Origin: a virus
Virus record (IMG/VR): IMGVR_UViG_3300009285_000030
Reading direction: 5' to 3' (one strand)
Length of the DNA: 38,390 nucleotides
The notes beneath the pieces are model-generated. The model had not been told where the DNA came from. It saw only the letters and a program-made list of their open reading frames with translations, and did not search any database. Below, one piece after another: positions 7,942 to 24,738 of the stretch (within the stretch, counting starts at the first letter, position 1; each line of letters opens with the position of its first letter). A program made the position numbers and the translations under genes.

Positions 7942-7986
7942 TTAACCATCCTCCTTCTTTTTATTTACTCCTCCTCCCCCTCCACC

Positions 7987-8169: not shown

Positions 8170-8594
8170 CTCATTCCCTCCTTAGTTATCCGTTCAAGGG
8201 TTTTCTTTCTCTTGCCCTTTGGCGCTTTCATAGTCTCAGTAACCACATTCTTGAGAGCCACAGTAGCCAGTCTTGGTTCGGCTTTCTTGACTCTTTCTTT
8301 CTCTTGGGCTATCGCTTCATCAGCCACGTAGTCAACCTCTTCCTTTTCCAGAGCACCGTAACTGGGAATGAGAATTGGTAGCCCACCAGTCTCTCTAGAA
8401 CTGATAAAGCGTCCTCTGGATTTATTGCCAAGAGGCAATCGTTCCCTTTCATGGATTACCGCTGGTGCTGGCACAGACATTATCTTCTCAAGAAGACGAC
8501 CACAGTTAGGGCATATTACTGTTGGGTATTTGCCGAATGGGAATAATCTCGTTTCAACACGTCCACAAGTACATTTATATTCGTAAATTGGCAT
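8166..8594 (-). CDS. FmdB-type CxxC/CxxC zinc-ribbon protein (142 aa)
   Basis: The N-terminus is MPIYEYKCTCG...CPNCG. Confidence 0.6.
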   Translation of the reverse strand: MPIYEYKCTCGRVETRLFPFGKYPTVICPNCGRLLEKIMSVPAPAVIHERERLPLGNKSRGRFISSRETGGLPILIPSYGALEKEEVDYVADEAIAQEKERVKKAEPRLATVALKNVVTETMKAPKGKRKKTLERITKEGMR

Positions 8595-8596
8595 AT

Positions 8597-8941
8597 CTAC
8601 ACCGCCTGGAATCCTACCAGCAATCCTTTCTTAAAAGTGAATTTGTATCCCCCGACTGTCCGCTCACCAGTTAGTCCAGCATCGCCGTCAGCCGATACAG
8701 TTCCAGTGAAGTTGATATTGCCGTGAGTAGAATGTTCGTGACTGGAATCAGCTTTACTATCCAGAGCATCACTCAATCCCGTTATGGCAGATAAGGCAAT
8801 CGGCAGAGGAATATCATAATCACCTGTTTCAGGATTGTAACGATATAGCCCACCAGTCTCAGGGTCAACCTTTATCCACTTAGTTCTATCAGGATTTGTG
8901 TTTATCCACCCATTTTTGAACTCATCAGGCATTTTCGCCAT
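8597..8941 (-). CDS. Small fibre-like structural protein (114 aa)
   Basis: ITGLSDALDSKADSSHEHSTHG resembles a fibre motif. Confidence 0.4.
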   Translation of the reverse strand: MAKMPDEFKNGWINTNPDRTKWIKVDPETGGLYRYNPETGDYDIPLPIALSAITGLSDALDSKADSSHEHSTHGNINFTGTVSADGDAGLTGERTVGGYKFTFKKGLLVGFQAV

Positions 8942-9224
8942 CTCCTCTGTTTAGAACTCTGGCTTTTTCGTGCACTTCTTCCTTATATTCACTTAAAGCC
9001 TTTCTCACCGCCGTGTCTTTCATTATATGTTGTCTATCGTAAACCCTCACCGGGTCGTTATAATCTAATTTTTCGGTGTGGTGAACTCGGAAGAATCCAA
9101 TAGATGACAGTAAGCGCCGGGAGTCTTTACCACATTTGGGGCAAGGGCATAGACTATTTGAGTTAATTCGGGATATGACCTCAAATGTCCCATGCTCTGG
9201 ACACTGATATTCGTAAATCGCCAT
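8925..9224 (-). CDS. FmdB-like zinc-ribbon protein with a degenerate first knuckle (99 aa)
   Basis: The N-terminus is MAIYEYQCPEHG...CPCPKCG. Confidence 0.5.
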   Translation of the reverse strand: MAIYEYQCPEHGTFEVISRINSNSLCPCPKCGKDSRRLLSSIGFFRVHHTEKLDYNDPVRVYDRQHIMKDTAVRKALSEYKEEVHEKARVLNRGDGENA

Positions 9225-9454
9225 TAAATATCCTCTGGCTCAAGCGCCTTACCAGTTGGTACTTTTGTCAGTATTTCGGGGTACGGGAGTTTAGGTGTTA
9301 ATGCAGAATCCCCTTTCCCCCAGTCCAGATTCTTTTTGAGTAGCCATGTTTTCTCACGGGAAAAGCGTAACATCCTCACCTTATAGGCCAGCTTTAGCCC
9401 TTGCCTATCCTTAAAGCAACTGAACTGAAAGCCGAAATAAAATCCTTTTCTCAT
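9224..9454 (-). CDS. Hypothetical protein (76 aa)
   Basis: Its stop overlaps the next start (TAATG). No SD is present, and a GC hairpin sits 8 nt upstream. Confidence 0.4.
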   Translation of the reverse strand: MRKGFYFGFQFSCFKDRQGLKLAYKVRMLRFSREKTWLLKKNLDWGKGDSALTPKLPYPEILTKVPTGKALEPEDI

Positions 9455-9462
9455 TTGTGGTA

Positions 9463-9489
9463 AGGGGGAGGGGAATTACCCCTCCCCCT
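9463..9489 (-). promoter_or_regulatory. Perfect 11-bp GC-rich hairpin with a 5-nt loop, between two small ORFs
   Basis: AGGGGGAGGGG, loop AATTA, then CCCCTCCCCCT. There is no U-tract after it on the coding strand. Confidence 0.6.
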
Positions 9490-9496
9490 CTGCCTC

Positions 9497-9610
9497 CTAA
9501 TCACTCGGTCTGAAAGAATGACCACACTTCGGGCAAGCTGTTACTCCCTCCTCGCTCTGTGGCACATTCTTCTCACCGCATATCGGGCATTTCTTTTTTA
9601 CTGCCGGCAT
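9497..9610 (-). CDS. Mini zinc-ribbon protein (37 aa; below the ORF-track cutoff)
   Basis: The sequence is MPAVKKKCPICGEKNVPQSEEGVTACPKCGHSFRPSD. GAGGAGG lies 8 nt upstream of the ATG. Confidence 0.55.
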   Translation of the reverse strand: MPAVKKKCPICGEKNVPQSEEGVTACPKCGHSFRPSD

Positions 9611-9641
9611 ATTAAAACCTCCTCGTTTTATTTGCCTCTGC

Positions 9642-10400
9642 CTACTCTATCTGAAGCATTATCAAGGCATCGCCATAGTTACCAGAGAACATCAGGTAAC
9701 CCGCTCTCTGCTTTGAGACTGCTTCGGTATTGATACCTTCATCCGCCATCTTGACAGTTCCATCAATATGGAATATGACATCCCTATCACCTGCAGCAGC
9801 CCCAGGCCAAGTGCCCGTAATCCATGCCCAATGTGGCCCCTGCACCTTGCCCCAGAAATAGTAACCAGAGGTGATTGGCCTCTCAATACAGCAGGCAAAG
9901 TGTTCAAAGTTACTAGAGTAAGCACCAGCGTTTCTGATGTTTCTCCAGGGGTTGGGGTAGGCTGCCAGAGTTCCACCAGCAGCATAAGCATAGATGAATG
10001 GCTCTGACACGTAGAGCTTATAGGTATTGCTAACCTCAGCATCGCTCTTCCAGATGTGATGGAACACATCGTACGTGCCAGAACTGGGTATAGCGAGATA
10101 GCCGTCCTGCCAGTAATCTTTCGCCCGGGAGTTGGTAGCATCAGTGATAACAACGGTGGTATCGCCCACAGCGATTGCCGCGGCTGTAGTCTCAGCCACA
10201 TCGCCGGTAACGCCTTCAAGATAGCGGTAGTGATTGATTTTAGCAGCCAGTGGATTTGTTATGGCTGCCCCCGCTTTGCAAAGGCGGTACAGACTACCGT
10301 CCTCCGTCATGCCCTTTCCTCCAACATGGAGAGACCTTGTTGTAGCATACTCATTGATAACCGCAGCGTAAGGCAAAGCAGCTAGATATGGGAAACTCAT
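9642..10400 (-). CDS. Virion structural protein, capsid-auxiliary or adaptor candidate (252 aa)
   Basis: It is a long ORF two genes downstream of the capsid gene with an RBS present. Confidence 0.45.
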   Translation of the reverse strand: MSFPYLAALPYAAVINEYATTRSLHVGGKGMTEDGSLYRLCKAGAAITNPLAAKINHYRYLEGVTGDVAETTAAAIAVGDTTVVITDATNSRAKDYWQDGYLAIPSSGTYDVFHHIWKSDAEVSNTYKLYVSEPFIYAYAAGGTLAAYPNPWRNIRNAGAYSSNFEHFACCIERPITSGYYFWGKVQGPHWAWITGTWPGAAAGDRDVIFHIDGTVKMADEGINTEAVSKQRAGYLMFSGNYGDALIMLQIE

Positions 10401-11017: not shown

Positions 11018-11875
11018 CTAACTCGTAGGAGCAGTTGCATCAAACAGGAGATAACGGCCGTATCCGCCATCTTCCTCTACCATAGCGTAGTCCGCCACGA
11101 TGCCGATTTCCCAGCCTCTCAAGGAATCATCCCAGACTACCCATGTGTCTGGCTCCCAGCCTACCACATAGATGAAGGCTTCCTTAGAGTAGATAGCTCC
11201 ATAGGCATCATTGTCGGAATCAATGGAGATGTTGGAGTCGTGGAAAACAGGCACTCCGTTCATCTTGATGATACCGGCGAAGTGGTTCTGGAGTACCGCC
11301 TGTTGGTATTCGCTCGGCATATGGCTGGTTCCCGGTGTTGCAATGGCATCCACGATGGTATTTAACTGGTAGGGATGCAGGACAAACGCCATCGGCATAG
11401 GAGCAGGTTCAGCCTGACCAATACACTGGGTAACAGCAGCAGCAGCGTAACCAAGACCGAAGGCGGTATTAGCATTGCTCAAACCACTGTCAAGACCAGA
11501 GTAGAGAGTCAAGCCGTCCTGATCCATCTTCTTGCCCATAGCGTTACCGATAACCTTGCCAGCATCACGGGCAACATTCCCTTTGAACTGGTTTGCTAGT
11601 TTCTTGGTAACGATGACCTTGCACCCAGCCTCGTTGGTGGTATGAGTCGTGCCGGAGATGGTGAGCGTCTGAGAGTTGGCCATATCTACACCATCAATCA
11701 GACCCTCAGCCACAATCGTGCCGAACTTTGGCACGTAGTAGCTTTTCTCACCCTTACCCATCCGGTGAACATTGACCGTGTTCTTGAAAACCTGAATTGG
11801 CTCGTAGGTATATCTGGCTGCTCCCACCATAGCTACGGCACCAGCAGCCAAATCAGCAGCAGTTGTATTTGCCAC
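11018..11875 (-). CDS. Major capsid protein, HK97-fold type (285 aa)
   Basis: It lies directly after a coiled-coil scaffold-like gene and has a strong AAGGAGGT RBS. Its sequence pattern is typical of HK97-like coat proteins. This is a by-eye call. Confidence 0.7.
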   Translation of the reverse strand: MANTTAADLAAGAVAMVGAARYTYEPIQVFKNTVNVHRMGKGEKSYYVPKFGTIVAEGLIDGVDMANSQTLTISGTTHTTNEAGCKVIVTKKLANQFKGNVARDAGKVIGNAMGKKMDQDGLTLYSGLDSGLSNANTAFGLGYAAAAVTQCIGQAEPAPMPMAFVLHPYQLNTIVDAIATPGTSHMPSEYQQAVLQNHFAGIIKMNGVPVFHDSNISIDSDNDAYGAIYSKEAFIYVVGWEPDTWVVWDDSLRGWEIGIVADYAMVEEDGGYGRYLLFDATAPTS

Positions 11876-11890
11876 TTGTGACCTCCTTGT

Positions 11891-12697
11891 TTACAGAGTT
11901 ACATTGAATCTTTTAGCAGCCTCTTGGTACTGCTCAAAGGAGATTTCGCCACTGATAAAGGCTTTCTCATAGTCTTCCCAAGTCCGAAATCCCCTTGTGG
12001 CAGAACGTGAACCTGCGCCGGCAGCCCTCGCCCTCTGGCCTTTGACTTCTGAGGTTTCAGTTTCCTTTTCGGATTCCTCTTCCTCTTCGCCCTTGGGCAC
12101 AGTCTTGGCTATAGACTCCATGCGTTTCAGGTTATAAGTTACCCTGCCATTATCAGCCGTATCAGAGCCTATCTGGAGAAGTAACTCAGCAGTCAGTCCG
12201 CTTTCTTTAGCAAGTTGCCTTGCTTTTTCCTCAGCTTCAATCCTGAGAGCCTTGTCCACAGCAACCTGGTGTTCAGTTCTTTCTCGTTCAAAGTCTGAGC
12301 GTGCTTTATTGACCTTATCCCATTCATCTTCTGCCTGATGTTTGAGACGCACCGAGTCAATCAGGTCTGGAGTTCCCTCAACAGACTTCAGTTCCCGCTC
12401 CCGTTCTTTCAACTTGAGTGACCTTATGGTTTCCTCAAGTTCAGATAATCGCCTACCCTGTCCATCGTAGTTTCGTTGCAGGACAGAGTGAGCTTCAAGA
12501 GTGGTCTTTAGAGTTCTGCCGATTTCTCCCCTCGCAGCATTTTCTCGGTCTCGCAGATCCTTCTGGGATAGCGTTATGGTATCCCCTTCTTCTGCTCCTG
12601 GTTCTAGCGTTTCTTCTGAGGTAGTTTCGGGTTCGACTGGCTGGGTCGTTTCCTCGACAGCCGTGCCTCCGCCGATTTCGCTCTTCTTTCTAGCCAT
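11891..12697 (-). CDS. Scaffolding protein (268 aa)
   Basis: It is highly charged and predicted coiled coil, and sits immediately upstream of the capsid gene. Confidence 0.6.
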   Translation of the reverse strand: MARKKSEIGGGTAVEETTQPVEPETTSEETLEPGAEEGDTITLSQKDLRDRENAARGEIGRTLKTTLEAHSVLQRNYDGQGRRLSELEETIRSLKLKERERELKSVEGTPDLIDSVRLKHQAEDEWDKVNKARSDFERERTEHQVAVDKALRIEAEEKARQLAKESGLTAELLLQIGSDTADNGRVTYNLKRMESIAKTVPKGEEEEESEKETETSEVKGQRARAAGAGSRSATRGFRTWEDYEKAFISGEISFEQYQEAAKRFNVTL

Positions 12698-12726: not shown

Positions 12727-12763
12727 TAAACAAAAAGCCGACCTCTCCTAAGAGAAATCGGCT
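12727..12763 (-). terminator. Rho-independent terminator on the minus strand
   Basis: On the minus strand: AGCCGATTTCTC, loop TTAG, GAGAGGTCGGCT. This is a 12-bp stem (10 Watson-Crick and 2 GU pairs) followed by TTTTGTTT. Confidence 0.75.
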
Positions 12764-12809: not shown

Positions 12810-12983
12810 TTACCCGAATTTATAATCCTGTTTGACAGTAGAAGCATAGACTGGCTCGCCTTTTTGGACTATGACTTCCTGTATTTTGCCATAACCAATT
12901 TCCTCACAAAGCGCCAGAAAATCCGCCTGTGCTTTACTCAACTCCTTATATTGATTAGTAGCACTTTTATCTTTTTCTGTCAA
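12810..12983 (-). CDS. DUF2292/YezD-like small protein (57 aa, TTG start; below the ORF-track cutoff)
   Basis: Hand translation gives MTEKDKSATNQYKELSKAQADFLALCEEIGYGKIQEVIVQKGEPVYASTVKQDYKFG. AGGAG lies 5 nt upstream. Confidence 0.5.
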   Translation of the reverse strand: MTEKDKSATNQYKELSKAQADFLALCEEIGYGKIQEVIVQKGEPVYASTVKQDYKFG

Positions 12984-12991
12984 GTATGCTC

Positions 12992-15900
12992 CTACTTCAT
13001 AGCCTTGAGTTTCCGTTCAATTTCCTCTTTGAGTCTATCTATCTCCGCTCTTTTCTTCGCTAAGTCTATGGCTATTTTTTCAGCCGTAGTCATACCAGCT
13101 TCAACATCAATCTGCTCTATCGGCTTTGAAACAGCACCGATAAGGACAAGCCAGGCATCCAACTTAGGATGTGTCCGCCGGTATTGTTCTCTGGCTTTGC
13201 TCCGAGACATATCAGGGGAACCAATCATTGAATCATAAATCAGATATTGCTCATAGACATCTTTCGGCGGAACTCTGCTGAAGTCTCTCGCCCCTGGCTT
13301 CCAGCCTTCCTTGCCCTCAGTTTTGGTATATAGGTCTGTCATCGCCCTGTAAAGTTCAGGGTGGTCAAGCAGATACCAGTCGTCATCAAACCAATAGTCC
13401 TGCCCGGGCGGTTTGCCTCTAGTCTCAATAACTTTATAACCCACATAATCCGGGACTAACTTTTCATTGCCGATAAAGAATAGATAGCCTTGCCGTTCCC
13501 AGATAGCCTGCTGGAAGTCAGGATTGCGAGCAAGTAAGCTCTCCCGCTTAGCTTCACGCTCATCTTTATCAGCTATGTATAAATCTGAAGCACCATCAGA
13601 GTAGCCATCAAGCTCCTCAAACAAGTCCTCATATTCAAAGTAAAGGTTATCGTAGCGCACATCGGGAATCTTGGTGGCATCCACTTTGTCTCTGACAGAG
13701 CTACCCATAATTGCTGGATTGGTCAGGATTGATTCAAGGTCAGGATTGTTTGCCAGATACCGTTCTTTTACATAGCCCTTCTCGGATAGCTCATAAAAGC
13801 CCACATACTTATCACGGAGGTTATCGGCTATGTCAGGAACATTCAAGGAATAGAAGTCCCTCTGCCGTCTCGCTATGCGGTAGTCATTATTCGCCTTGAG
13901 ATAATCCGCCCTTGTCTGGTCTGTTTTAAGAGCTTCATAGGCTTTGTCCTGCTCCCGCCACTGGACATTTATCCTGAGAACATTCTTATTCCAATCCTTT
14001 CCGTCATCGGTTAAGAGTTCATTATCCAGCGCCCACTTCCAGACATCTGGATGGTCAAGAAGCCAGACCTTTGCCTCAGAACTGCCCGCTGTGAATTGGT
14101 CAATAGTCCTGCCCCTGTCTACCCACGACTCCACAATCTTCGGGTCGGTTGGTGCTTTATTAGTCCCTATCTCAATAGCCTCAATCCTGCGGTCAATATC
14201 AATGTAGGTCTGGTCGCCAATCTTGGTAGCCTTCAGGTCGGCAATATACCTATCTCTGGCTGTTAAGCTGTTCTCATCTTTGACTTTATCATCTAGTGTC
14301 TTCAGGTAATCTTTATCATCCAGCTTGTGCCATATTGCCCGATATGTCTTTTCAGTCTTCAGTTCCAGGGAGGCGATAGGAGTATCTATTGGCTGCCTAC
14401 CTAAGAACTGTAACAGCTTCTCATCCTTTGCCAGAAGGAGTTGTGCCTCCCATGAGTTTTTATTCTCCATATCTTGGTACTTGAAATAACCGTCTATGGA
14501 ATCTTTTGGTGGCAGGGTTAATTCAGGCAAAGCATTATCGGGAATATCATATTCACCTACCAGCCTGTTAAATTCATTATAAGATTCTTTGGTCAGGAGT
14601 TTAACCTTGCCAACCAGTGCTAAGAGGGCGTTTTCCTTTGTGTTTTTCAGGAGATAATCATTTCGGGGATTTACATTAAGCCCAGGATTATCCTTTACAA
14701 ACTGCGCCTTGCTTCTATCATCTTTCTGGTTATAATAATTTGTGATTAAGACGAAATCGGACTGGCTGATATTACCTTTCTCATAACGCAGTTCTGCTTC
14801 TTCAAGAGTCAACTCTTTTAGTTTTTGGTTTGTCAGTAGCTCAGTATCGTCCCAGAGAATATGCGCCTCTACCATTAGCTTATCCAATGGCTCGTAGCCC
14901 TTGCGCTCTGTCATTGTTTCTGGGTCAAGGTCTGTATAGACCTGCCCCACCTTGCCAAAATAGCCTGCTATGCTGTAGTTATCCTGCTTCTGGACTCGGA
15001 ATGGCTTTGCCTCGTTATATTCCCAGGGTATCGGTAGTCCGAGTTTCTTTCTCTCCCGGTCAAGGTAAGTATTGTCAAGAGTTACCAGGTTTACGCCCAT
15101 GAACTGAGATATTACCTGCTGCCAGATGTCCTCTTTATATCGCTCTCCAAGTCTAACAGCTTCCAAAGGAGCACCAGCCGTTAGCGGTAGGATATTCTCA
15201 AGTTCATATTCAAGCATCCTTAGCATTTGTTCAGGGAAGTCGCCCTTCCTGATTTCGGTCTTGGAGTAGTCCTTATTTAATACCAAATCCAGTTGAGTCC
15301 TGAGTAATGGAGTAATTCTATTTTTTAGATACATCGGCACGCCAGCAAAAGGCACCGGGAATGGGATTCCCTCTATCTTCTGAGGGTAGAAAGCCCTGAA
15401 TAATGCTCTATATGGCCCGCCTAGCGGTATTCTCTTATTACCGATAATAATGCTGGCGAAGTTACCATTCTTCGGGTCGGGGTCAATAGCCTGCCACATG
15501 GCATTGATAACATCTTCATCATCATCACCTCTGGCTATAGCTGATAAAGCTGCACTGGTAGCAGAGATTGCCAGAGTAGAAACAACACCGGTCAGCATTA
15601 CCTTAATTGACAGCGTTTCCTTTGGAGTCAGTTTCTGGAAGGTTGCCAACTTAGCCAGCCCGGTAGTTGTCTCACCTATTAGAGCTAGAGGTTGAACGAT
15701 AAAGGAATAAGATGTTGGCAATGTTCTAAGTAGCGCTGCCCGTTTTTGAGACTGACCTAGCAAACCTGGATTAGCCAGAGGGTAAATCTCACTGGCTATC
15801 TTCATCGCCATAATCTGAGCATCAAGTTCAGTGATACCGTGTTTCATCATATTGCGATAGTTAGCCCGCCATGAGTGGAATTGCGCCCGAGTAACTGAAA

Positions 15901-18900
15901 CAAAGGCAGATTCATTAGCAGCACTCCATCCAGGTAGCTTAGAGAGATAACCAGCACTATATTCTGGTGCCGTACCCGCTACCGTGTAACCACGCAGGGA
16001 AGCAAATATACCCCACTCTTGCGGGTTAGCGTCAATATCCTCTCCTAATGCTGAGATTCTGACAGAACGGAACGGGTCTTTGTGAACGATAGAAGCCTTT
16101 AGTCCACCGACGCCGACTACCATACTGTTTATAGGGTCAGCAAGCACTCCAATTACTCCTTGAATAGTGAATGGCGAGAAGTCCCCGGTGAATGTGCCAG
16201 CCCGCACCATCTCAATAGCCTTCAGGGCTTTACTTCTACTCATTTCTCTGGAATATTTAATATCCTTTACCATATCAGAGGGGAAGTAACGGAAAAGCCC
16301 TTCTTGGACAAAGACATAAGGCTTGAGGTTGGCAGCCTTCCACGCTGGGCGAATCTCTTCAAAATCAGCCCGCACCTCATTTATTTCAGCATCAATATCT
16401 GCAAATGTTTTACCAGCTTGAGCCTTAGCAACATAACGCCCTGGTTTTAGTTCAAGAGAATCTCTCAAATTGCCAATGTCTGCATCTTCAAAAGAGGACG
16501 AAAGGAAAGTATCAATAGATTCCAATTCTTGTTGTCTAAGTACATTCCGATAACCTTGCAATCTTTGGAGTTTCTTTCTAAGAGCAATCATCTTGTCATA
16601 TAATTCGGGGTGTGTTTTTTCCATTGCCTCAAGTCTGGTTAGTCCACCGATGGCAGCCCGGTAAGTGTTTCCCGCAGCAGCCGATGCCTTGAAACTGTCC
16701 AGTCCTTCAATGAGTTTTTGGACATCCAGTTCAGGTTTGAACGGAGTCTTACCAGCTATTCTCTCCCTGGCGGTCGCCCAGATACGGGTCTTACCACGCC
16801 CGGATACAACCGCCCTTGTTTCGCTCTCCAGGTATTCAATCACATCCTCAGAAATATCAATATTCGGCAGGAAAGCACCATCAGGTTTTGGAATGAACTT
16901 ACCTATCTCAGCGCCATAGTTTTCTACCACCCAGTCAAGCATCGTATTATTGTGGACTTCCATATTTGCTAAAGCCCCTAATTGAGCTGTGGAGAGTTCA
17001 TAAAGTTCAGGGTTATCGGCAATGTCCTTGAGAGTGCCAGTAATAGGATTCCTAGACTGTTCAATAGTGCCTAGAAACTTAATATCAGACTTACCGCCTC
17101 TCAGAACATCCTTACCGAAGACATCTCTTAGTTCTCGGAGTAACCTGATGCGAGAGGATAAGCTGAAGTTAGCCACATCAGCCCTTGCCTGTTGTTCGGC
17201 TACCATCGCCGTATGGACATCTTTGTTTAAGGTTAATGCTGGTTGGTTAAAAGCAAGTGCCTGTCTAATACCAGGTATCTTGAGCATAAGGCGGGTAAAT
17301 GCACCGGCGGGATTCAGTTCTATCTGTCTCTTTGCCATAGTAATGATGCGTTTTATTTCACTATCACGAGGCATCGCAGGTAATGGTGCAGGAGGCACTA
17401 TTGATTGAGTAGGTGGCGGTTGCGGAGGCGGAATACCAGCAGGAGGCGGTTGTGCTGGTAATTCTTTAACCTCTGGTGTTACTTCTGCTGGAGGGGTAAC
17501 AGCTTCCGCCTTAACTCTTGCTGCCACTTCCTCAAAATAAGTGCCAGCCTTAATTTTCTTTCTAACTAATTCAGCCTCTTTTTTAGAGGCAAATACTTCC
17601 CGCCAAGCTGGAGCAGCCCAAATCCCTACTGTAAGCACATATTGTTTAGGTTCAGTTAGGGTTTCACGAATAACTACCTTTTCTGGTATAACAGCTTCCT
17701 CAGCATTTAGTCTTGAGGCTTCTGCGATAGATATTCCCTCAGCTTTTGCCCTTGCTTCCGCTCCAGTTTGTGTTGCTGGATAAGTAATACCAACTTCGGG
17801 GGTGGGGGGTTTAACTTCAGAAGTCTTCTCCCAAATAGTTTTGCCAGTCCGCTTAGTGTAAGTTGCTTTATAACCTTGCGATAACATATATTGCCCATAA
17901 GACTGTAAATCCTTAAAATCCTCAGGCTTTTTTAAGGAAGTTACAACATTTTTCTGGTCTCTTACACTGTAATTATTACCAACATCTATAGGTTTTGTAA
18001 CCTCTGGGGTAACAGGTTTAATCTCCAGTGGCTTCTCACGGGCAACTTCAGGAGTTATCTTATTCCTGATAATACTGCTTCTTTCTCCTACATCAAGTTC
18101 TGCTATCCTAGCATCAGACCAACCTAGCTCTTTTAATTGCGATTCTTCTACGGTGGGGAGTTCTGGTTCAACATAACCCACCGCTTTAGCCTCAACCTTC
18201 CCCTCATCCACCAGCTTCTTCTTGAGATTATCAAGAGCTATTTTATCAGCCTCAGTCTTAGGCTTAATCTGCCGGACTGTCGCTTCCTTTTCAACTTGGG
18301 CTGTAGCCTCTTTCACAATCTTCTCACCTTCAGGAGTCTCAGCCACATTATCAAGTGCCTGCTTTTTTGCCTCAAAGTCGTTTAATCCTTGTCTTACCAG
18401 TTCAGCAACATTATCTTCATAGGTAGTCTTTTGCTCTGGAGATAGCTTTTCAATAACTCTATTCTGAATACGGACTATAATATCGCCACCACCGCCCATG
18501 CCAATACCAGCAGCAGCACCGAGCGCAAATACCTCTTGCATGGCAGGGTCTTTAATGAGTTCACCAAAGCCTCTCTCATCGCCCATCGCTCTTAGCTGTA
18601 TCATCTCCTGGTATAATTCCTCACCACCTTCTGTAAGCCCGGTGAAAGCCAGCTTGCCCGCTACCATAGCAGTTCTAAATAGACCGCTTTTTGCCATCTG
18701 CCCGAATACTCTTGCTGGTTGGGGAGCAAAGGCTACCGCAAGTTGGGCGGCATCAAGCCCACCCAATTTAAGATTATTGACAAACACCTTGTTGGCAGCT
18801 ACCTCAGCATCTTCGTGGGACAGCCCCTTTGCTCTAGCCTGGTCATAAGCGCCAGCAGCCTCCATCGCACCTTCAAGCGGACGGCTTAAAGCAGCACCAC

Positions 18901-19933
18901 CAATACCGGTTAGAATGGTTTTACCCAAAGCCCCCAGCCCTACTCTACCTGCTATTGAGCCTGCCAGACCATAGCCACCAATTCCAGGGATAGCCAGTAA
19001 CATCAAGTTCGGCAGCATCCTCACGCCCCTGTTTATCCACCAGTCGCCGTTGAATAATTGCTTCCATGTAAAATCGCCCAGTTCGTCAGGCTTCAGTTGC
19101 ACCTGCATAAACTGTCCAACATCAGTAATTTTTTGTCCGATACCTTCAGCACCAAGCCACCTGAAAATACCGCCGACATTAGCGACCAAATCGCCAGTTC
19201 CAGCAGTAAAGGCAGCACCGAAACCAGCCTTAGCCTGCTTCGCCTCTTTCTCGATAACCATCGCCGTCTGGCTAAAGTAGTTTTTAAGTTGCGATTCGGT
19301 TATGTCAGTATAAAGCGTCTTAACCAGCGCCTCGGTATTGGCGTTTCTGCCAGCAGTAATTAAATTACGCCTCAGATTTTCAGGGTCTTTCAAAAGATAA
19401 TCTGTCATCTCATCTCTGTTTATTTCACGCACCAGAAGGGGTAGTGCTTTCTGAAAAGTCTCTGGCAAAAACACGGCGTTTATATTCTTTTCTTCTAAGC
19501 CTAAACCTCTCAGGATAGTCTCTGTATCCGCATTTCTACCTTTCGTCTGGATATTCTTAACGAAAGCATCAGGGTCCTCAAAGGCTATTGTTTGGATAGC
19601 AGTTAGAGTTTGTTCAGGAGTCTCCAGCCCTGTAAAGGATTCCGGATATAGGTTCTGTAATGATTTAGATAGCGTCTCAGGAATTTCAAAGGCTGGCAAA
19701 ACTGGGGTTATTGGCAGAGGAATCCCACCATACAAAGCCCCCTCTTTTGGCTGAGTGGGAGATAGCAGGAAGTCCTCGCCTTCAGGAGTTTCATAACCAA
19801 GTTCTCTAGCTTGCGGAGAGGTCAGCCATAGAGGTTTGGTTAGCTGTTTTTTACCAAGCGTTCCCTCCTTGAGATAGCGCTTCAAAAGCTCTAACTGTTT
19901 AGGGCTGGCATATTCTTTAGCTTCAGTCACCAT
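12992..19933 (-). CDS. Giant virion-associated protein (2,313 aa), candidate internal or ejection protein
   Basis: It is an uninterrupted 6.9-kb ORF between the portal and scaffold genes. It has two Gly-rich hydrophobic clusters, a Pro-rich linker and a C-terminal repeat motif. Confidence 0.6.
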   Translation of the reverse strand: MVTEAKEYASPKQLELLKRYLKEGTLGKKQLTKPLWLTSPQARELGYETPEGEDFLLSPTQPKEGALYGGIPLPITPVLPAFEIPETLSKSLQNLYPESFTGLETPEQTLTAIQTIAFEDPDAFVKNIQTKGRNADTETILRGLGLEEKNINAVFLPETFQKALPLLVREINRDEMTDYLLKDPENLRRNLITAGRNANTEALVKTLYTDITESQLKNYFSQTAMVIEKEAKQAKAGFGAAFTAGTGDLVANVGGIFRWLGAEGIGQKITDVGQFMQVQLKPDELGDFTWKQLFNGDWWINRGVRMLPNLMLLAIPGIGGYGLAGSIAGRVGLGALGKTILTGIGGAALSRPLEGAMEAAGAYDQARAKGLSHEDAEVAANKVFVNNLKLGGLDAAQLAVAFAPQPARVFGQMAKSGLFRTAMVAGKLAFTGLTEGGEELYQEMIQLRAMGDERGFGELIKDPAMQEVFALGAAAGIGMGGGGDIIVRIQNRVIEKLSPEQKTTYEDNVAELVRQGLNDFEAKKQALDNVAETPEGEKIVKEATAQVEKEATVRQIKPKTEADKIALDNLKKKLVDEGKVEAKAVGYVEPELPTVEESQLKELGWSDARIAELDVGERSSIIRNKITPEVAREKPLEIKPVTPEVTKPIDVGNNYSVRDQKNVVTSLKKPEDFKDLQSYGQYMLSQGYKATYTKRTGKTIWEKTSEVKPPTPEVGITYPATQTGAEARAKAEGISIAEASRLNAEEAVIPEKVVIRETLTEPKQYVLTVGIWAAPAWREVFASKKEAELVRKKIKAGTYFEEVAARVKAEAVTPPAEVTPEVKELPAQPPPAGIPPPQPPPTQSIVPPAPLPAMPRDSEIKRIITMAKRQIELNPAGAFTRLMLKIPGIRQALAFNQPALTLNKDVHTAMVAEQQARADVANFSLSSRIRLLRELRDVFGKDVLRGGKSDIKFLGTIEQSRNPITGTLKDIADNPELYELSTAQLGALANMEVHNNTMLDWVVENYGAEIGKFIPKPDGAFLPNIDISEDVIEYLESETRAVVSGRGKTRIWATARERIAGKTPFKPELDVQKLIEGLDSFKASAAAGNTYRAAIGGLTRLEAMEKTHPELYDKMIALRKKLQRLQGYRNVLRQQELESIDTFLSSSFEDADIGNLRDSLELKPGRYVAKAQAGKTFADIDAEINEVRADFEEIRPAWKAANLKPYVFVQEGLFRYFPSDMVKDIKYSREMSRSKALKAIEMVRAGTFTGDFSPFTIQGVIGVLADPINSMVVGVGGLKASIVHKDPFRSVRISALGEDIDANPQEWGIFASLRGYTVAGTAPEYSAGYLSKLPGWSAANESAFVSVTRAQFHSWRANYRNMMKHGITELDAQIMAMKIASEIYPLANPGLLGQSQKRAALLRTLPTSYSFIVQPLALIGETTTGLAKLATFQKLTPKETLSIKVMLTGVVSTLAISATSAALSAIARGDDDEDVINAMWQAIDPDPKNGNFASIIIGNKRIPLGGPYRALFRAFYPQKIEGIPFPVPFAGVPMYLKNRITPLLRTQLDLVLNKDYSKTEIRKGDFPEQMLRMLEYELENILPLTAGAPLEAVRLGERYKEDIWQQVISQFMGVNLVTLDNTYLDRERKKLGLPIPWEYNEAKPFRVQKQDNYSIAGYFGKVGQVYTDLDPETMTERKGYEPLDKLMVEAHILWDDTELLTNQKLKELTLEEAELRYEKGNISQSDFVLITNYYNQKDDRSKAQFVKDNPGLNVNPRNDYLLKNTKENALLALVGKVKLLTKESYNEFNRLVGEYDIPDNALPELTLPPKDSIDGYFKYQDMENKNSWEAQLLLAKDEKLLQFLGRQPIDTPIASLELKTEKTYRAIWHKLDDKDYLKTLDDKVKDENSLTARDRYIADLKATKIGDQTYIDIDRRIEAIEIGTNKAPTDPKIVESWVDRGRTIDQFTAGSSEAKVWLLDHPDVWKWALDNELLTDDGKDWNKNVLRINVQWREQDKAYEALKTDQTRADYLKANNDYRIARRQRDFYSLNVPDIADNLRDKYVGFYELSEKGYVKERYLANNPDLESILTNPAIMGSSVRDKVDATKIPDVRYDNLYFEYEDLFEELDGYSDGASDLYIADKDEREAKRESLLARNPDFQQAIWERQGYLFFIGNEKLVPDYVGYKVIETRGKPPGQDYWFDDDWYLLDHPELYRAMTDLYTKTEGKEGWKPGARDFSRVPPKDVYEQYLIYDSMIGSPDMSRSKAREQYRRTHPKLDAWLVLIGAVSKPIEQIDVEAGMTTAEKIAIDLAKKRAEIDRLKEEIERKLKAMK

Positions 19934-20113
19934 TTAGAACACCTTTGGCTCACCACCGCTCACCACAGGTGGGAGTTTCGCCTGCCGTTTCAAAATGGAT
20001 TGCCTTAATCTCTCCACCAGTAAATTAGAGCCAGCCACAGGTAAACGCTTCTTTACAGCGTTGTTGATTATCTGCTGGGATAGCTTCTGTAGTTCCTTAT
20101 CTAAAAATGGCAT
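19934..20113 (-). CDS. Hypothetical protein (59 aa; below the ORF-track cutoff)
   Basis: Hand translation gives MPFLDKELQKLSQQIINNAVKKRLPVAGSNLLVERLRQSILKRQAKLPPVVSGGEPKVF. It overlaps the upstream stop as TAATG, and its own stop abuts the giant gene's ATG. Confidence 0.5.
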   Translation of the reverse strand: MPFLDKELQKLSQQIINNAVKKRLPVAGSNLLVERLRQSILKRQAKLPPVVSGGEPKVF

Positions 20114-20490
20114 TATATTTCAGCCTCCTGTGTCCCCTTTAATTTATCAAAGGCTTCAACTATATTGTTATAAAGAATCTCCGAAACTAAACCTAGCCGT
20201 CTTTCTTGAATTTCTTTAAACTTGCGCCTAAATTTTGGGGAGAGGAACCTATACCATCTAAATTGCCGACAATTATCAATAGCAAATCCATATTCCCAGC
20301 CTCTATAAAAATTATCAGAAGCAATCCAATCTTCAATCAGGCGACTCGGTAAAATTCTGTGTTTTATAGCATAATTCCTTATTGTTTGAATTAAAGTCCA
20401 TTTAGCGCCAATCCTTTTGTTTTTATATTCAGGACTTGCTCTCATCTTTTTTGTTATGATAATCTTCAAGCCCATTTCTGTGTGTTTCAT
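20113..20490 (-). CDS. Hypothetical protein (125 aa)
   Basis: The ORF is packed tightly between its neighbours. Confidence 0.5.
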   Translation of the reverse strand: MKHTEMGLKIIITKKMRASPEYKNKRIGAKWTLIQTIRNYAIKHRILPSRLIEDWIASDNFYRGWEYGFAIDNCRQFRWYRFLSPKFRRKFKEIQERRLGLVSEILYNNIVEAFDKLKGTQEAEI

Positions 20491-20759
20491 CAGATTTTTA
20501 CCTCCTCATCTGGGATAAAAACGAACACGCCACTTTTAGTTTCTGAATCCTCATCGGGATGGCAAATACCGATAATCTTATCTTTATCCACTGTGATTTT
20601 AGAATATGACTTGGTTCTAAGTGCATTAAGCATAGCATCAGCACCAGCCTCAAAGGCATTGTGCATCAGGTTCCTAGTTCCTTGAACGTCCATAACTAGA
20701 GGAACATAATTAGGGTCTTTCTTATACGGATTATTCCATACTTCCCTAGGTCTCCACAT
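20490..20759 (-). CDS. Hypothetical protein (89 aa)
   Basis: The ORF lies directly after the portal gene. Confidence 0.5.
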   Translation of the reverse strand: MWRPREVWNNPYKKDPNYVPLVMDVQGTRNLMHNAFEAGADAMLNALRTKSYSKITVDKDKIIGICHPDEDSETKSGVFVFIPDEEVKI

Positions 20760-20760
20760 A

Positions 20761-22542
20761 TTATATTTCTGCCTCCTGTTCTATTTCTCCAGCGCCGGGC
20801 GGTTCCATTTCCCTGGTCGTTCTGGTCTGTCCTACTGGCGGTGACCCCGGGCCCACCATCAAAGCAGCAGCTTCCTGCGCTGGCGAAGCTTCTGGAACTT
20901 CAACACCAGTAATTTTTGTTACTTCCTTTGGCGCAATCCCCTCAAGAGCCATACCCATTTCTACCAGAAGAACTTTAGCCTCATCATTTTTACCCTGCTT
21001 ATCAAGAGCCTGTGCCATCTGGAATAATCCCAGAGCACGGCTCACTTTCTGAGCCGTTTGCACCAGATACTTCTCGTCAATATCGTCATAGTCCCGGTAT
21101 TTTAGAATAGTCTTGCGGATGCTCCTATCGTCCATCCACCTCTGTGCCATACCTGCCAGACCATAAGCGGCAGCCGTCTCCTCTGGTAAAGCGGTCAGGT
21201 ACTCAAAGTCAACTGTATAATCGCCAGCCAGGTCAGCAGCCGTATAAGTCCGCTTATTGCCGTGCCGTCCGATAGCAGCACTCATCCCAAAAGCTGTGAA
21301 CTGCCAGGCAGCCTCTTTGAAAAGGAGTTTCTTGAACCGCTCCATAGTCTTAATCCGGGGGGTAAACACCTGTCTGGAAGCGCCAGCCAGGGTAGCGATA
21401 GCAACCTGTGATAGCTGGAACGTAAGGTTTCCCCAGTCTATTTCGCTCAAGGAACCACGTTGTTTAGCACCATTCAGAGTAGCCATGATGAAGCGAACAG
21501 CACCGATTATATCTGGCCCCTCTACCTTTGAAAGCCCCTCAGTAGTTTTAAGTGCCAGCACATTACCAAGCCGGTAAATCGGGTTTGCGGGCACTTTTGT
21601 CCCCGACTCGCTTTTGAGAACCTGTGGGGGCCGGAGTGAAAGTATACTCATACTTTGTAGAATAGAAGCTATCTTATTGATGTGCGGATACAAGTCCCGG
21701 CTACCACTAAAGATAGATTCGCCCCGCATCCTTAAAGCTCTCGTTGAAGTATCCAGAAAAGTTCCTTGCTGGCATAAAGCTACCACAAAAGGCAGATGCC
21801 GAAGTTTATTCGGTATTGCCTCGTAGAATTTGCCGTCGAGGAAAATCACTTCCTCGTTATAATTCCAAGAGTCCCATCGTGTGACGCCTTCACCCTGCGG
21901 TTTGTAATCGGGATATTCTTCACGGCAGAAATCCTTATCGAGGGTATCCCAGAAAGCGACTTTTGACAGTCCCCACCTGCCCACCGAATAAATACATTTC
22001 CGCCTATCCACCGGCAGTAAGTCCACATCAAAGCCGAGTCTATCCTGGGACAAAAGAATCCTTGCCACCATTCCGCCCCTGATTGCTACCTGCTCCCACT
22101 CGTAAGTATCAAAGTCTGGCATCAGGATTTCGTTAAGATGGTCGTTGGCAAGATACATCAGGTCATGCCACCAGTCCTCGATAACCTTTGTCTGGTGTCC
22201 GTCCAGTTCTTCGCCGTTCCTCTGCCCGTTTACCTCGATAATTTCTTCGGACTCATTCAGGACAGCCAACACCCGTTCTCCATAGACCCTGGCATCATTC
22301 ATGGTCACGTGTTCAACCGCTTCCATGTCATTTCCTTCAGGGTCTTTAAGCTTGAATAGCTCTCCAGTCCATAGCTTTTCATCCTCATCCATGCGAGGGA
22401 AAATATGCTTGCCCCACTCCATACTGACCGAGTTAATCCAGTTCATAGTCTCGTCATCGGAGGGAAGCATTGGTATCTGAGCCGACAATGAGGTTGATTG
22501 CGGGACTGCTTTTGAACCTTTGAGGTCTGCTATTTTAGTCAT
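20761..22542 (-). CDS. Portal protein (593 aa)
   Basis: Its size and its position immediately downstream of TerL support the call. Confidence 0.7.
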   Translation of the reverse strand: MTKIADLKGSKAVPQSTSLSAQIPMLPSDDETMNWINSVSMEWGKHIFPRMDEDEKLWTGELFKLKDPEGNDMEAVEHVTMNDARVYGERVLAVLNESEEIIEVNGQRNGEELDGHQTKVIEDWWHDLMYLANDHLNEILMPDFDTYEWEQVAIRGGMVARILLSQDRLGFDVDLLPVDRRKCIYSVGRWGLSKVAFWDTLDKDFCREEYPDYKPQGEGVTRWDSWNYNEEVIFLDGKFYEAIPNKLRHLPFVVALCQQGTFLDTSTRALRMRGESIFSGSRDLYPHINKIASILQSMSILSLRPPQVLKSESGTKVPANPIYRLGNVLALKTTEGLSKVEGPDIIGAVRFIMATLNGAKQRGSLSEIDWGNLTFQLSQVAIATLAGASRQVFTPRIKTMERFKKLLFKEAAWQFTAFGMSAAIGRHGNKRTYTAADLAGDYTVDFEYLTALPEETAAAYGLAGMAQRWMDDRSIRKTILKYRDYDDIDEKYLVQTAQKVSRALGLFQMAQALDKQGKNDEAKVLLVEMGMALEGIAPKEVTKITGVEVPEASPAQEAAALMVGPGSPPVGQTRTTREMEPPGAGEIEQEAEI

Positions 22543-22543
22543 T

Positions 22544-23884
22544 TTATCCCCTTATTCTAACACTTGGTGCTATTTCCTCGTTATTCGGAAAAACCGATAG
22601 CGGTCTGAACTGCGTCATCATATAGCGTTCACTCGCCATGAAGTGGAATATCTCTTCGTTCTCAATCTTGTCCTCAATAGGCACGTAGTTAGCATCAAGT
22701 TCCCTGGAGAATGTCTGCTTCTCCTCCAAGTAATTCCGGCAAGTCCTGAAAACCTTGTGCTTGTGCAGCTTCTCAAAACCGTAAACCCTGTTTATCTGAG
22801 ACCAAACACTTTTATCAAGTGGCTTATCAATGCGCCAGCCCGCCTGGGAGAAGTCGCCCCGCCAGCCATCCTCGGTCGGGGAACCGCCCATTCTTGAAGC
22901 AATCCGCTCTCCCTTAGATAGTTCAATCCAATTCGTAACGTGCTCAAAGGTAGATAGCTGTCCCATAGAGTAGTCCCGATAAGTATAGAAAATCCCTGTA
23001 GAGGGGTCGTAAGCCTTCCACAAACTCACCGTATTGATTGGCCCGAAGTCGTGCCCAACATATCTCGGCCAGTGGGCGGGTATTTCAAACGGCTCTATAA
23101 TATCATTGACTGAATCAAAGGCATCATAAATAAGCCCGGCCGGTTTAGAGAATCTACCCCGGTGGAACATATCGAACTTCCAGGCTGGCATCATTTTCTG
23201 CATCCTCTGGAACTCATCCAGGGGGAAAGCGGGATTAGCGGTCGAGTCAAACTGAATTACATCAATATCGGGATTGCCCTTGAGCCACTCGTCATAAATA
23301 TCGGTCTTGAGCCAACCCAAGCCGTAGAGAGTGGTCGTCATTAGAATCCGGGCCTTGTTAATTAGCGTCCTGCGCTGGACAGCTTCCCATGTTTCCCGCT
23401 TGAACTGCTTTTGACCGCACTCGTCCAACCACACGCCCTTAACTGTAGCCGATTCCATTGACTCGGGGTTCTGAGCTGACCCGATTATCACCCTGACCGG
23501 AACATCTGAGTCAGGAAACAAGACATAGTCCGTCTTTTTCTTCGCTGTCTTCTTAGAATGAAAGGTGAAAATCTTACGGTTCTGGTCGTAAACCCCATAG
23601 TGGAATAAGTCGCCAAACACATATAGGAACTCAGGCAGTAGCTTTCTATCAAGCAAAGGAAAGGTTGAAGTGCCTACCAGGTAGTCCCCGGGCCCACAGG
23701 TTCTTATTTCCCTGTCTAACCAGTGTGGCCCGAAAGAAGTCTTGCCCCCCTGGCTTCCCGCCTGCATATCTATTATCCGCTTCTTGGAGAGCCATGTCTT
23801 GACCTGCCCGGGATGGAAATTAACAACCAGTGTTCCATCGGACTTTATCTCCCGAAACGGCTTGACCTTAATTTCTGTGACCAA
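22544..23884 (-). CDS. terL: Terminase large subunit (446 aa, TTG start)
   Basis: It has a Walker A motif (AGSQGGKTS) and Walker B (VWLDECGQ), followed by a nuclease-half-like C-terminus. Confidence 0.85.
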   Translation of the reverse strand: MVTEIKVKPFREIKSDGTLVVNFHPGQVKTWLSKKRIIDMQAGSQGGKTSFGPHWLDREIRTCGPGDYLVGTSTFPLLDRKLLPEFLYVFGDLFHYGVYDQNRKIFTFHSKKTAKKKTDYVLFPDSDVPVRVIIGSAQNPESMESATVKGVWLDECGQKQFKRETWEAVQRRTLINKARILMTTTLYGLGWLKTDIYDEWLKGNPDIDVIQFDSTANPAFPLDEFQRMQKMMPAWKFDMFHRGRFSKPAGLIYDAFDSVNDIIEPFEIPAHWPRYVGHDFGPINTVSLWKAYDPSTGIFYTYRDYSMGQLSTFEHVTNWIELSKGERIASRMGGSPTEDGWRGDFSQAGWRIDKPLDKSVWSQINRVYGFEKLHKHKVFRTCRNYLEEKQTFSRELDANYVPIEDKIENEEIFHFMASERYMMTQFRPLSVFPNNEEIAPSVRIRG

Positions 23885-24269
23885 CTTCGGATTCCTTCAT
23901 ATATTTGTTCAGGATACCACTTTTCGCTATAAATCTTAAAAGAGAATCTGGAAGAACAACTTTACAAAGCTCAACTTTCTGTAGTTGCCCCTCGGCAGTG
24001 AGAGCGACACCTTGTGCAAACACCAAAAAATCTTGGTCGTCAGATTCCCGATAAAATTCGTAACTACGGAGAGATGCGTCTCTTTCCATAATATACTTCA
24101 TGCCATCGCCCCCCTTCCCCTCAAAATGCACTATCTTACCTATCCCATTCACCAGCTTGGCTCCGCACTTCGGACAACTGAAAACTCGCCTCTCCCCATT
24201 TTCATACGTGAGACGCTTCTCTTCCTTGAACCCGCACCCCTGACAAAAATAATCATAGAGAGGTGACAT
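23868..24269 (-). CDS. FmdB-like zinc-ribbon protein (133 aa)
   Basis: The N-terminus is MSPLYDYFCQGCG...FSCPKCG. GGGAGG lies 6 nt upstream of the ATG. Confidence 0.55.
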   Translation of the reverse strand: MSPLYDYFCQGCGFKEEKRLTYENGERRVFSCPKCGAKLVNGIGKIVHFEGKGGDGMKYIMERDASLRSYEFYRESDDQDFLVFAQGVALTAEGQLQKVELCKVVLPDSLLRFIAKSGILNKYMKESEVGHRN

Positions 24270-24501
24270 CACTAACCTCCCATACCCTCATTAGCCACGC
24301 CAACCATTCTATCTCCTCCACCATCTCCCCTATCTCAGCGTCTTCTAAAAGCTCCTCTACTGTCATGCCTAATTCCCTTGCGGATTCCTCGCCCCAGGGA
24401 AAACCCCCATCCCAAATCCACCCCCCTGTTTTGGCATTACTAGATTCGGCTGCTTCTTTACTCTGCTCTCCTCTATCGACGTCACATATATCGTCCCACA
24501 T
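24253..24501 (-). CDS. Acidic hypothetical protein (82 aa); start uncertain
   Basis: It overlaps 24369..24737 by 133 nt in the -1 frame. An alternative start at 24366 would give 37 aa. Confidence 0.35.
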   Translation of the reverse strand: MWDDICDVDRGEQSKEAAESSNAKTGGWIWDGGFPWGEESARELGMTVEELLEDAEIGEMVEEIEWLAWLMRVWEVSDVTSL

Positions 24502-24737
24502 TTAACACATATGTCTGTCGTCACATGGTACGCTGGCAACTCCGTCCCCATCGGCAGTTTCCCCTCTAACCCCTTGTCTACACATACCCCCTCTATCACC
24601 TGAAAACAAAAGCCCATCTCCTTCCTCATGTGCCCCCTCGCCTTCTCCTTATTCCCCATCTCCTCACAATACCGCTCCGGAGACCCACACACCGGACAGA
24701 CCTTGTACTCCTTTATCCCTATCTCTACCTCTGCCAT
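24369..24737 (-). CDS. Zinc-ribbon protein (122 aa; start moved to the internal ATG)
   Basis: It has paired motifs CPVCG...CVKCG. GAGGAGG lies upstream of the ATG at 24737. Confidence 0.5.
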   Translation of the reverse strand: MAEVEIGIKEYKVCPVCGSPERYCEEMGNKEKARGHMRKEMGFCFQVIEGVCVDKGLEGKLPMGTELPAYHVTTDICVKCGTIYVTSIEESRVKKQPNLVMPKQGGGFGMGVFPGARNPQGN

Positions 24738-24738
24738 T

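Follow-up and report, generated by a model that had tools for sequence, protein, structure and literature searches.

How short-tailed phages carry their DNA, together with very large proteins, across a bacterial envelope is understood for only a few model phages. The viral genome in IMG/VR record IMGVR_UViG_3300009285_000030 raises this question through a single gene. The whole stretch of DNA analysed here (the window; 38,390 nt) encodes on its minus strand, at 12992..19933, a protein of 2,313 amino acids (aa) that lies between a probable portal gene and a probable scaffolding gene. What could so large a protein be doing among the head genes of a small phage? Our favoured answer, held with moderate confidence, is that this giant protein is packaged in the head and ejected as a cargo protein, and is neither a tape measure nor a virion RNA polymerase (vRNAP).

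The original prediction, made from the letters and their open reading frames (ORFs), had likewise preferred a packaged internal or ejection protein to a tape measure. This preference gains support from the likeness of an N-terminal module to the injection domain of N4 gp50, from the slot within the head module, from the links of sister proteins to virion proteins through LPD38 cassettes, from the absence of cysteine and from the compact fold of the central module.

A modular giant protein

Because both ends of the window carry the same 77 bp (bases 1-77 are identical to 38314-38390), the window represents a circularly assembled genome of 38,313 bp, which is probably complete. The giant gene occupies 18.1% of it, in agreement with the 18% first estimated, and its 2,313 codons run from an ATG start and, as the original prediction had stated, without interruption. 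The product is an acidic protein of 258.8 kDa (pI 5.45) with no cysteine.

Aligning 25 metagenomic homologues from a database search (1,450-3,560 aa) onto the giant protein reveals an architecture of five parts, all given here in minus-strand coordinates. The variable N1 (aa 1-240; 19214..19933) is followed by N2 (aa 241-600; 18134..19213), an all-helical module present in 23 of the 25 homologues. A linker (aa 601-894; 17252..18133) of charged helices, with four TPEV repeats and a proline-rich stretch, is poorly conserved, with conservation confined to the closest relatives. The central module, MID (aa 895-1625; 15059..17251), is compact, mostly helical and common to only two of the homologues. 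Finally, the C-terminal module (aa 1626-2313, about 690 aa; 12992..15058) contains internal repeats and is the most widely shared part of these giant proteins (18 of 25).

Several features that had been noticed by eye fall within this architecture. The duplicated GRNA[DN]TE motif near the N-terminus is present as GRNADTE (aa 132-138; 19520..19540) and GRNANTE (aa 195-201; 19331..19351). The pair sits in a tandem duplication of about 63 aa that is true rather than a chance resemblance: its local alignment score is 61, compared with a mean of 24 and a maximum of 53 in 1,000 shuffles. In many homologues a GR[NTS]xxT motif occurs once or twice upstream of N2. The glycine-rich hydrophobic cluster coincides with Kyte-Doolittle peaks at aa 306-349 and 468-486, and aa 301-400 consist of 18% glycine and 18% alanine. 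The first of these peaks corresponds to glycine-zipper hydrophobic helices (18887..19018) that are the likely membrane-inserting segment. The TPEV repeats and proline linker are also as described, with TPEV at aa 627, 642, 711 and 819 and the proline-rich stretch at about aa 815-853 (17375-17491). A second hydrophobic cluster, placed at about aa 1240-1400, does contain two helices, at aa 1255-1278 and 1445-1463, and its extent needs correcting, as the latter helix lies slightly past aa 1400.

The claim that the protein has no enzymatic signature is likewise borne out. Pfam gave only two chance-level matches for the whole giant protein (E 0.14-0.18), thus none below E 0.1; none of its lysozyme or SLT profiles matched, and Phage_Mu_F did not match at E <= 1, in line with the reported lack of a MuF motif. 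NCBIfam gave no match. Neither HExxH nor HExxxH occurs anywhere in the protein, there is no conserved P-loop, and no polymerase motif, again as predicted, was found in Pfam, PHROGs or NCBIfam. A Walker-A-like GLGALGKT at aa 332 was considered and rejected, its lysine not being conserved in the family consensus. The giant protein has no match among PDB sequences, and tblastn found none in 50,697 GenBank phage records.

The repeats of the C-terminal module are visible to profiles. A self-BLAST of the C-terminus detected no repeats; the profile built from 123 aligned segments aligns with itself at offsets of about 120 and 250 aa (probability 99.6%), and the repeats have a recurrent [YW]L..[ND/H]P[DE]L motif at corresponding positions. 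With hhalign, this profile showed no similarity to the C-terminal domain of gp50 or to gp51.

An N-terminal module resembling the injection domain of N4 gp50

The profile libraries returned one match of the whole giant protein at E <= 0.1, the two Pfam matches above aside. Residues 324-573 align with positions 233-508 of the 3,406 positions of phrog_2206, which is annotated 'virion RNA polymerase' (E 1.8e-8), and eight of the 23 N2 family members match the same profile. The N2 sequences, collected in an alignment of 23, share the motif series SRPxE, EAxGAYDxA, GLSxEEA, TGLTEGGEExYQE and GxGMGxGGD. We compared them with the N-terminal domains of N4 gp50 and ten other schitovirus polymerases (n=11). 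These 11 domains have the same motif order and are collinear with N2: Gly/Ala-rich, moderately hydrophobic helices, then (M)EAGGAY(Q/D), G(M/L)SxE(E/Q)A, (R/T)ExxEExxQ and GxGxxGxG. Kyte-Doolittle peaks over 19 residues are comparable as well, at 1.36-1.59 in N2 and 1.29-1.47 in the gp50 N-terminal domain.

A hidden Markov model (HMM) of N2, grown with jackhmmer to cover 38 proteins, gives collinear alignments with three of the 11 schitovirus domains, at 11-15 bits; in 1,100 shuffles with local composition preserved, scores have a 99th percentile of 4.4 bits and a maximum of 9.2. Because of the PHROG match, the collinear motifs and these shuffle-controlled scores, and allowing for a weak pairwise profile comparison that we weigh below, we hold with fairly high confidence that N2 and the membrane-inserting N-terminal domain of N4 gp50 are remote homologues.

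Under default filters, the N2 family was missed by an HMM built from the 11 vRNAP N-terminal domains, and the jackhmmer search from N2 converged on its 38 proteins with no vRNAPs among them. A profile search of a large protein database with the 23-sequence alignment returned two proteins only, perhaps through low-complexity Gly/Ala words crowding the candidate list. The AlphaFold2 model built on the same alignment is all-helical (predicted local distance difference test, pLDDT, 77; predicted template modelling score, pTM, 0.71). Its confidence is low over the glycine-zipper helices (pLDDT 35-43), and Foldseek found no match for it in the PDB.

What the gp50 domain does in N4 gives the likeness its interest. 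A 2026 study predicted membrane-spanning helices at residues 224-278 of the gp50 N-terminal domain, and reported that the isolated domain enters nanodiscs, proposing that it anchors the ejected polymerase at the inner membrane (PMC13434306). Residues 224-278 immediately precede the motifs shared with N2. Injection in N4 depends on this domain, which inserts into membranes (PMC13434306; PMC5512222).

N2 is not confined to proteins with the architecture of the giant protein. It also heads P0023, a DarB-like protein with a 2H phosphoesterase, an Eco57I-type methylase, an SNF2 helicase and LPD38, and P0025, which combines a methyltransferase with LPD38. If the relation to gp50 is true, the injection domain would be a portable module, reused by unrelated giant cargo proteins, and its sequence would serve to flag ejected proteins in metagenomic phages. 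We also note P0241, a metagenomic protein of 493 aa that aligns over 60% of N2, at 48% identity to the first N2 sequence, and that has, in addition, a precomputed Pfam match to Terminase_2 (small terminase). It may be a gene fusion, or an artefact of assembly or gene calling.

A large uncharacterised family at the centre

MID belongs to a large uncharacterised family without a described relative. An exhaustive HMMER search with aa 880-1720 against 1.84 billion representatives (50% identity) found 331 at E < 1e-3, 236 of them below 1e-30. Common to these relatives is a unit of about 740 aa, preceded in most of them by a proline-rich stretch; N2 is absent from most, and their usual length is 1,000-1,800 aa. 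In another locus, a protein carrying MID alone sits just upstream of the scaffold and capsid genes. A Pfam scan of 35 members assigned no family, and no relative was found among PDB sequences. Three tblastn queries, two of them divergent MID relatives, detected no MID in the cultured phages among the 50,697 GenBank phage records.

The AlphaFold2 model of MID is compact and mostly helical (pLDDT 84.7, pTM 0.81). This compact fold is modelled with high confidence where it includes the hydrophobic helices at aa 1255-1278 and 1445-1463, which are therefore more likely to be core helices than transmembrane segments. Foldseek searches of the PDB gave nothing for the model (best E 0.2). The predicted viral structures of BFVD gave 27 matches at E < 1e-3, with template modelling (TM) scores of up to 0.54. 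The matches are mostly segments of giant phage proteins, and mostly large multi-part entries, with names such as 'large polyvalent protein associated domain-containing', zeta toxin, ART-PolyVal, LT_GEWL, helicase and methylase. There is also a weak fold match (E 1.6e-3, TM 0.29) to the 'internal virion protein' of Vibrio phage VP2, a virion protein of the epsilon15-gp17 type. At the sequence level, the MID and C-terminal profiles found nothing when compared with gp50, gp51, VP2, HTVC034P gp44-46 and Page_20. The presence of LPD38 in the giant protein was examined and rejected: an HMM from three LPD38 segments finds just those three, and hhalign gives a probability of 0.1% against MID.

With a confident large fold, hundreds of metagenomic relatives, no annotation and a location at a site of rapid exchange, MID is a target in the search for new host-directed activities.

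Constant ends and an exchangeable centre

By following the portal-like protein we found six further contigs, and in all six, as in the window, the order is large terminase subunit (TerL), portal-like protein, giant protein (2,247-2,556 aa), scaffold-like protein and capsid protein. The portal-like proteins are 81% (L019), 77% (L001), 73% (L020), 45% (L021), 30% (L022) and 22% (L015) identical to that of the window. The giant gene is a hallmark of a clade of metagenomic phages with genomes of about 38 kb.

Strikingly, giant proteins accompanied by portal-like proteins that are 73-81% identical have unrelated central cassettes. Between the L019 giant protein and that of the window, similarity is limited to aa 63-155 and the C-terminal third (identity of 52% over aa 1855-2313 and of 26% over aa 1480-2200); the N2 of L019 has diverged, and an unrelated cassette fills its centre. 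The L020 giant protein resembles that of the window over aa 76-155, weakly in N2 and at the C-terminus, and has a centre of LPD38 type. The same pattern is seen in P0002, which is 66% identical to the giant protein at the N-terminal end and 39% at the C-terminal end; a central cassette at aa 644-1570, including LPD38, replaces MID. Overall, the interval between N2 and the C-terminal module is filled by several unrelated types, each found in a few proteins.

In other words, the central module is a cassette that is exchangeable between related phages. Because close relatives carry unrelated cassettes, MID is probably the part of the protein that is matched to the host. The combination of constant ends with an exchangeable centre resembles the organization of polymorphic and polyvalent effectors, and suggests diversifying selection at the host interface.

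Sister proteins and the absence of cysteine

Although MID has no detectable sequence link to proteins known from virions, the cassette that replaces it in P0002 does lead to cultured short-tailed phages. In pelagiphage HTVC034P the match is gp44, which follows tail tubular proteins A and B and an 'internal virion protein B-like' gene and so occupies a slot of T7 gp16 type. In Bacillus phage Page the match is a late protein of 1,679 aa. A further giant protein with LPD38 is gp47 of the Stx phage phi24B (2,811 aa), which also has LPD5, LPD1 and MuF-C domains; by mass spectrometry it is abundant in virions, it is invisible in cryo-EM, and its authors propose that it is an ejection protein (bioRxiv 10.64898/2026.04.10.717836).

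The lack of cysteine is a signal independent of sequence homology. Given the 0.65% cysteine of 12 other late proteins of the phage, none among 2,313 residues would be expected with a probability of about 3e-7. Of 93 homologues longer than 1,500 aa, 65 are cysteine-free. So are N4 gp50 (3,500 aa), gp51 and gp52, compared with 1.15% cysteine in the N4 replication proteins, as well as HTVC034P gp44-46 and Bacillus phage Page_20. Such a composition would fit unfolded passage through a narrow channel and an oxidising periplasm. Lack of cysteine may thus be a general marker of phage ejection proteins, simple and so far little used.

A possible mechanism

The analysis shows the architecture of the giant protein and its distribution, the conserved gene position, the exchange of cassettes, the remote similarity of N2 to gp50, the lack of cysteine and the confidently predicted compact fold of MID; packaging, ejection, membrane insertion, the role of each end and the incorporation signal we infer. 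The giant protein would be made late, alongside the head proteins, and a few copies would be enclosed in the procapsid. The C-terminal region of N4 gp50 is needed for its encapsidation. By analogy, the incorporation signal may be the repetitive C-terminus, or alternatively the N1 repeats near the portal gene. At infection the protein would leave through the portal and tail channel, largely unfolded, a mode of exit that fits the complete absence of cysteine. N2 would then insert its glycine-zipper helices into the cytoplasmic membrane and anchor the remaining protein at the site of DNA entry, so that the 730-aa MID and the C-terminal repeats would be delivered to the periplasmic or the cytoplasmic side. 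There, MID might extend a conduit through the envelope or act as an effector on host targets. On this model the giant protein is probably a functional counterpart of N4 gp50 that lacks the enzyme, or of several internal virion proteins joined in one chain.

Several considerations weigh against this reading. Packaging of the giant protein has been deduced throughout. The hhalign comparison of N2 with the N4 N-terminal domain is weak and limited to short stretches, with probabilities of 35% for the single sequence and 7% for the 11-sequence profile, and the N2 segment matched to gp50 is compositionally biased. Its hydrophobic helices are only moderately so (Kyte-Doolittle 1.4-1.6), which is borderline for a classical transmembrane helix. 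The structural matches of MID are modest (TM 0.3-0.54; 0.29 for VP2), and searches with its sequence gave no link to any virion-proven protein. Ejection systems often carry a peptidoglycan hydrolase, and none was found here. In T7, P22 and N4, the known ejection-protein genes are not located between the portal and scaffold genes.

Alternative explanations

The best surviving alternative, which we nevertheless consider improbable, is that the giant protein is made late and stays out of the virion, acting inside the infected cell as a membrane-anchored platform for assembly or replication, in superinfection exclusion or in lysis. Glycine-zipper hydrophobic helices would suit a resident membrane protein as well. 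Counter to this, it leaves without explanation the position in the head block of seven genomes, the similarity of N2 to an injection domain, the absence of cysteine that is common to known ejected proteins, and the link of sister cassettes to internal virion proteins.

Alternatively, the protein could sit on the outside of the virion, for instance as a fibre of great length, as a decoration of the head or as an appendage of the tail. We consider this less probable still. Large size, C-terminal repeats and high variability between close relatives are reminiscent of host-recognition proteins, and proline-rich linkers occur in fibres too. Yet the protein is predicted to be almost wholly helical, with no beta-helix, Ig-like or lectin domain; an exposed fibre would not usually contain such glycine-zipper hydrophobic helices; fibre-like and LamG-type proteins have genes of their own downstream; and N2 resembles a domain of an internal, injected protein.

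A displaced tape measure of a long-tailed phage, which would set tail length and then form a membrane channel, is very improbable. The slot between the portal-like and the scaffold and capsid genes is not the expected place after tube and chaperone genes, and genes of neither type were detected. The central 730 aa form a compact globule (pTM 0.81) rather than an extended coiled coil, no tape-measure profile in Pfam, PHROGs or NCBIfam matches, and N2 is related to a module of short-tailed N4-like phages. Arguing for this case, the giant gene is the only very long gene in the genome, there is no candidate among the downstream tail-like genes, and tape measures are helical, cysteine-poor and often equipped with Gly-rich hydrophobic segments; in addition, a 368-aa homologue in a relative has a faint Dit-type match.

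Least probable of all is a divergent vRNAP or other nucleic-acid enzyme equivalent to N4 gp50 or the crAss-like phage polymerases, as the N-terminal module common to N4-type vRNAPs and a size near that of crAss-like polymerases are offset by the lack of any polymerase profile match, by a best polymerase match of the MID model in the PDB of only E 0.6 (probability 0.06), by empty hhalign comparisons of the MID and C-terminal profiles with full-length gp50, and by the replacement of MID with unrelated cassettes in close relatives, which would be unexpected for an essential polymerase.

The original prediction had named full-length homology to a tape measure or vRNAP family as a finding that would overturn it. 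No such homology was found: the similarity to vRNAPs extends over only about 250 residues of the N-terminal domain and includes no polymerase.

Relation to known systems

Returning to the packaged cargo protein as the preferred reading, the closest comparison is N4 gp50 of the Schitoviridae. Both are giant proteins of tailed phages with a helical, Gly/Ala-rich N-terminal module, motifs in a set order and no cysteine. However, the giant protein has no T7-like RNA polymerase domain, no HExxH metallopeptidase and no gp50-like C-terminal domain. Its gene adjoins a portal-like gene rather than partners of gp51/gp52 type, in a genome of 38 kb instead of about 70 kb, and the likeness is remote and visible to profiles only. 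The giant protein thus falls outside the vRNAP family.

Polyvalent proteins (Iyer et al. 2017), including DarB-like proteins and phi24B gp47, are also very large and encoded in a late or virion gene context. The connections run through individual modules: N2 heads P0023 and P0025, sister proteins carry LPD38, and the fold of MID matches segments named for LPDs. Polyvalent proteins are recognised by at least two disparate activities, and P0023 and P0025 have these. No enzymatic, named LPD, MuF or metallopeptidase domain was detected in the giant protein. Because no enzymatic domain was detected, it stands outside the polyvalent definition; it may nevertheless belong to the same network of modules.

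The internal virion proteins (T7 gp14/15/16, N4 gp51/52, epsilon15 gp17/VP2, HTVC034P gp44-46) are similarly helical and cysteine-free. They share the proposed role of being stored in the head and expelled to bridge the envelope, and a cassette of a sister protein is homologous to HTVC034P gp44. In contrast to these systems, the giant protein is one chain of 259 kDa rather than three proteins, has its gene among the head genes and not behind the tail tubular genes, has no sequence similarity to VP2, gp44, gp45 or gp51, and contains no lytic transglycosylase. The specific comparison with T7 gp15/gp16-type proteins, suggested when the gene was first noted, found no relation: neither the N2 nor the MID model has a fold match in the PDB, and SLT and lysozyme profiles do not match.

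Minor head proteins of the MuF / SPP1 gp7 type are encoded directly after the portal gene, in the slot that the giant gene also occupies, lie inside the head and can carry effector domains (PMC5512222). The giant protein differs in having no Phage_Mu_F domain and in being about five to seven times larger.

The idea of giant packaged phage proteins is already established. Not described before is the combination seen here: in 38-kb phages, a gene placed between those for portal and scaffold encodes an N2 anchor, a swappable cassette of 700-1,000 aa and a C-terminus with internal repeats. A bolder proposal, to which we give only a small chance of being right, is that N2 defines a broad 'eject-and-anchor' family, which would be coupled to an RNA polymerase in N4, to DarB-like anti-restriction enzymes in other phages and, in this clade, to a 730-aa machine whose fold is not represented in the PDB. 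MID and the C-terminal repeats might then be, instead of passive cargo, a new device for genome entry or host reprogramming, doing the job that transcription by the polymerase does in N4, and the cassette swaps would reflect an arms race with host envelopes or defences.

Gene neighbourhood and further features of the genome

The genes around the giant gene are all on the minus strand. TerL (446 aa; 22544..23884) is identified by phrog_2 (E 3.9e-18). In L020 the terminase gene (7706-9991) encodes 761 aa compared with about 446 aa, and has a weak intein-splicing match, which suggests that this TerL carries an inserted intein.

Directly after TerL lies the probable portal gene (593 aa; 20761..22542). 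The protein itself has no direct match in Pfam, PHROGs or the PDB and no similarity to the HTVC111P portal, and the assignment draws on two of 19 family members that match the portal profile phrog_64 (E 6e-5). The probable scaffolding protein (268 aa; 11891..12697) is highly charged and is recognised by position and by its charged, coiled-coil-like composition only. The location of the giant gene between portal and scaffold, one of the first things noted about it, is therefore supported, to the extent that these two probable assignments are right. The major capsid protein (285 aa; 11018..11875) scores 28.6 bits with Pfam Phage_capsid_4, where the cut-off is 27. Its nearest cultured relatives, at 24-25% identity, are the capsid proteins of pelagiphages HTVC111P and HTVC112P.

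Two small ORFs (89 and 125 aa; 20113..20759) separate the portal-like and giant genes, and in the relatives there are from zero to four at this place. Just downstream of the giant gene is a 57-aa ORF with a TTG start (12810..12983), for which a similarity search returned nothing significant; small ORFs also occur at the corresponding place in L014, L015 and L020. A hairpin with a 12-bp stem (six G-C pairs) followed by a T-run lies at 12736..12763, and an AGGAGG ribosome-binding site and the start of the scaffold-like gene come about 40 nt past it. The hairpin could be a terminator or an RNA-processing site that sets a weakly expressed giant gene apart from strongly expressed scaffold and capsid genes. 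In L001 and L019, the closest relatives, just a gap of about 40 nt is found where the window has the 57-aa ORF and the hairpin.

Among the late proteins encoded further downstream, no tube, sheath, chaperone or tape-measure protein was recognised, an absence that amounts to a lack of profile matches only; several are LamG- or fibre-like. The late operon also encodes two proteins, of 142 aa (8166-8594, minus strand) and 99 aa (8925-9224, minus strand), that begin with near-identical zinc ribbons, M[PA]IYEY[KQ]C...C..CG. Zn_ribbon_8 proteins are present in the late regions of L001, L015 and L019 as well.

Upstream of the terminase gene, 24001-25000 contains short overlapping ORFs and has a GC skew of -0.51, compared with about -0.1 to -0.2 elsewhere on the strand. 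On the plus strand, 26755-27462 encodes a stand-alone ArdC-N protein (anti-restriction, ssDNA-binding; Pfam E 6.5e-11), and the equivalent region of L001 has a weak ArdC-N match. ArdC-N is among the commonest domains of polyvalent proteins. In the early region (29533-31458, minus strand), an N6/N4 DNA methylase gene adjoins that of a DUF5131 (phage Gp37/Gp68) protein, and near the methylase lies a gene (27592-28857) for a RepA/KaiC-like AAA_25 ATPase with a C-terminal winged helix.

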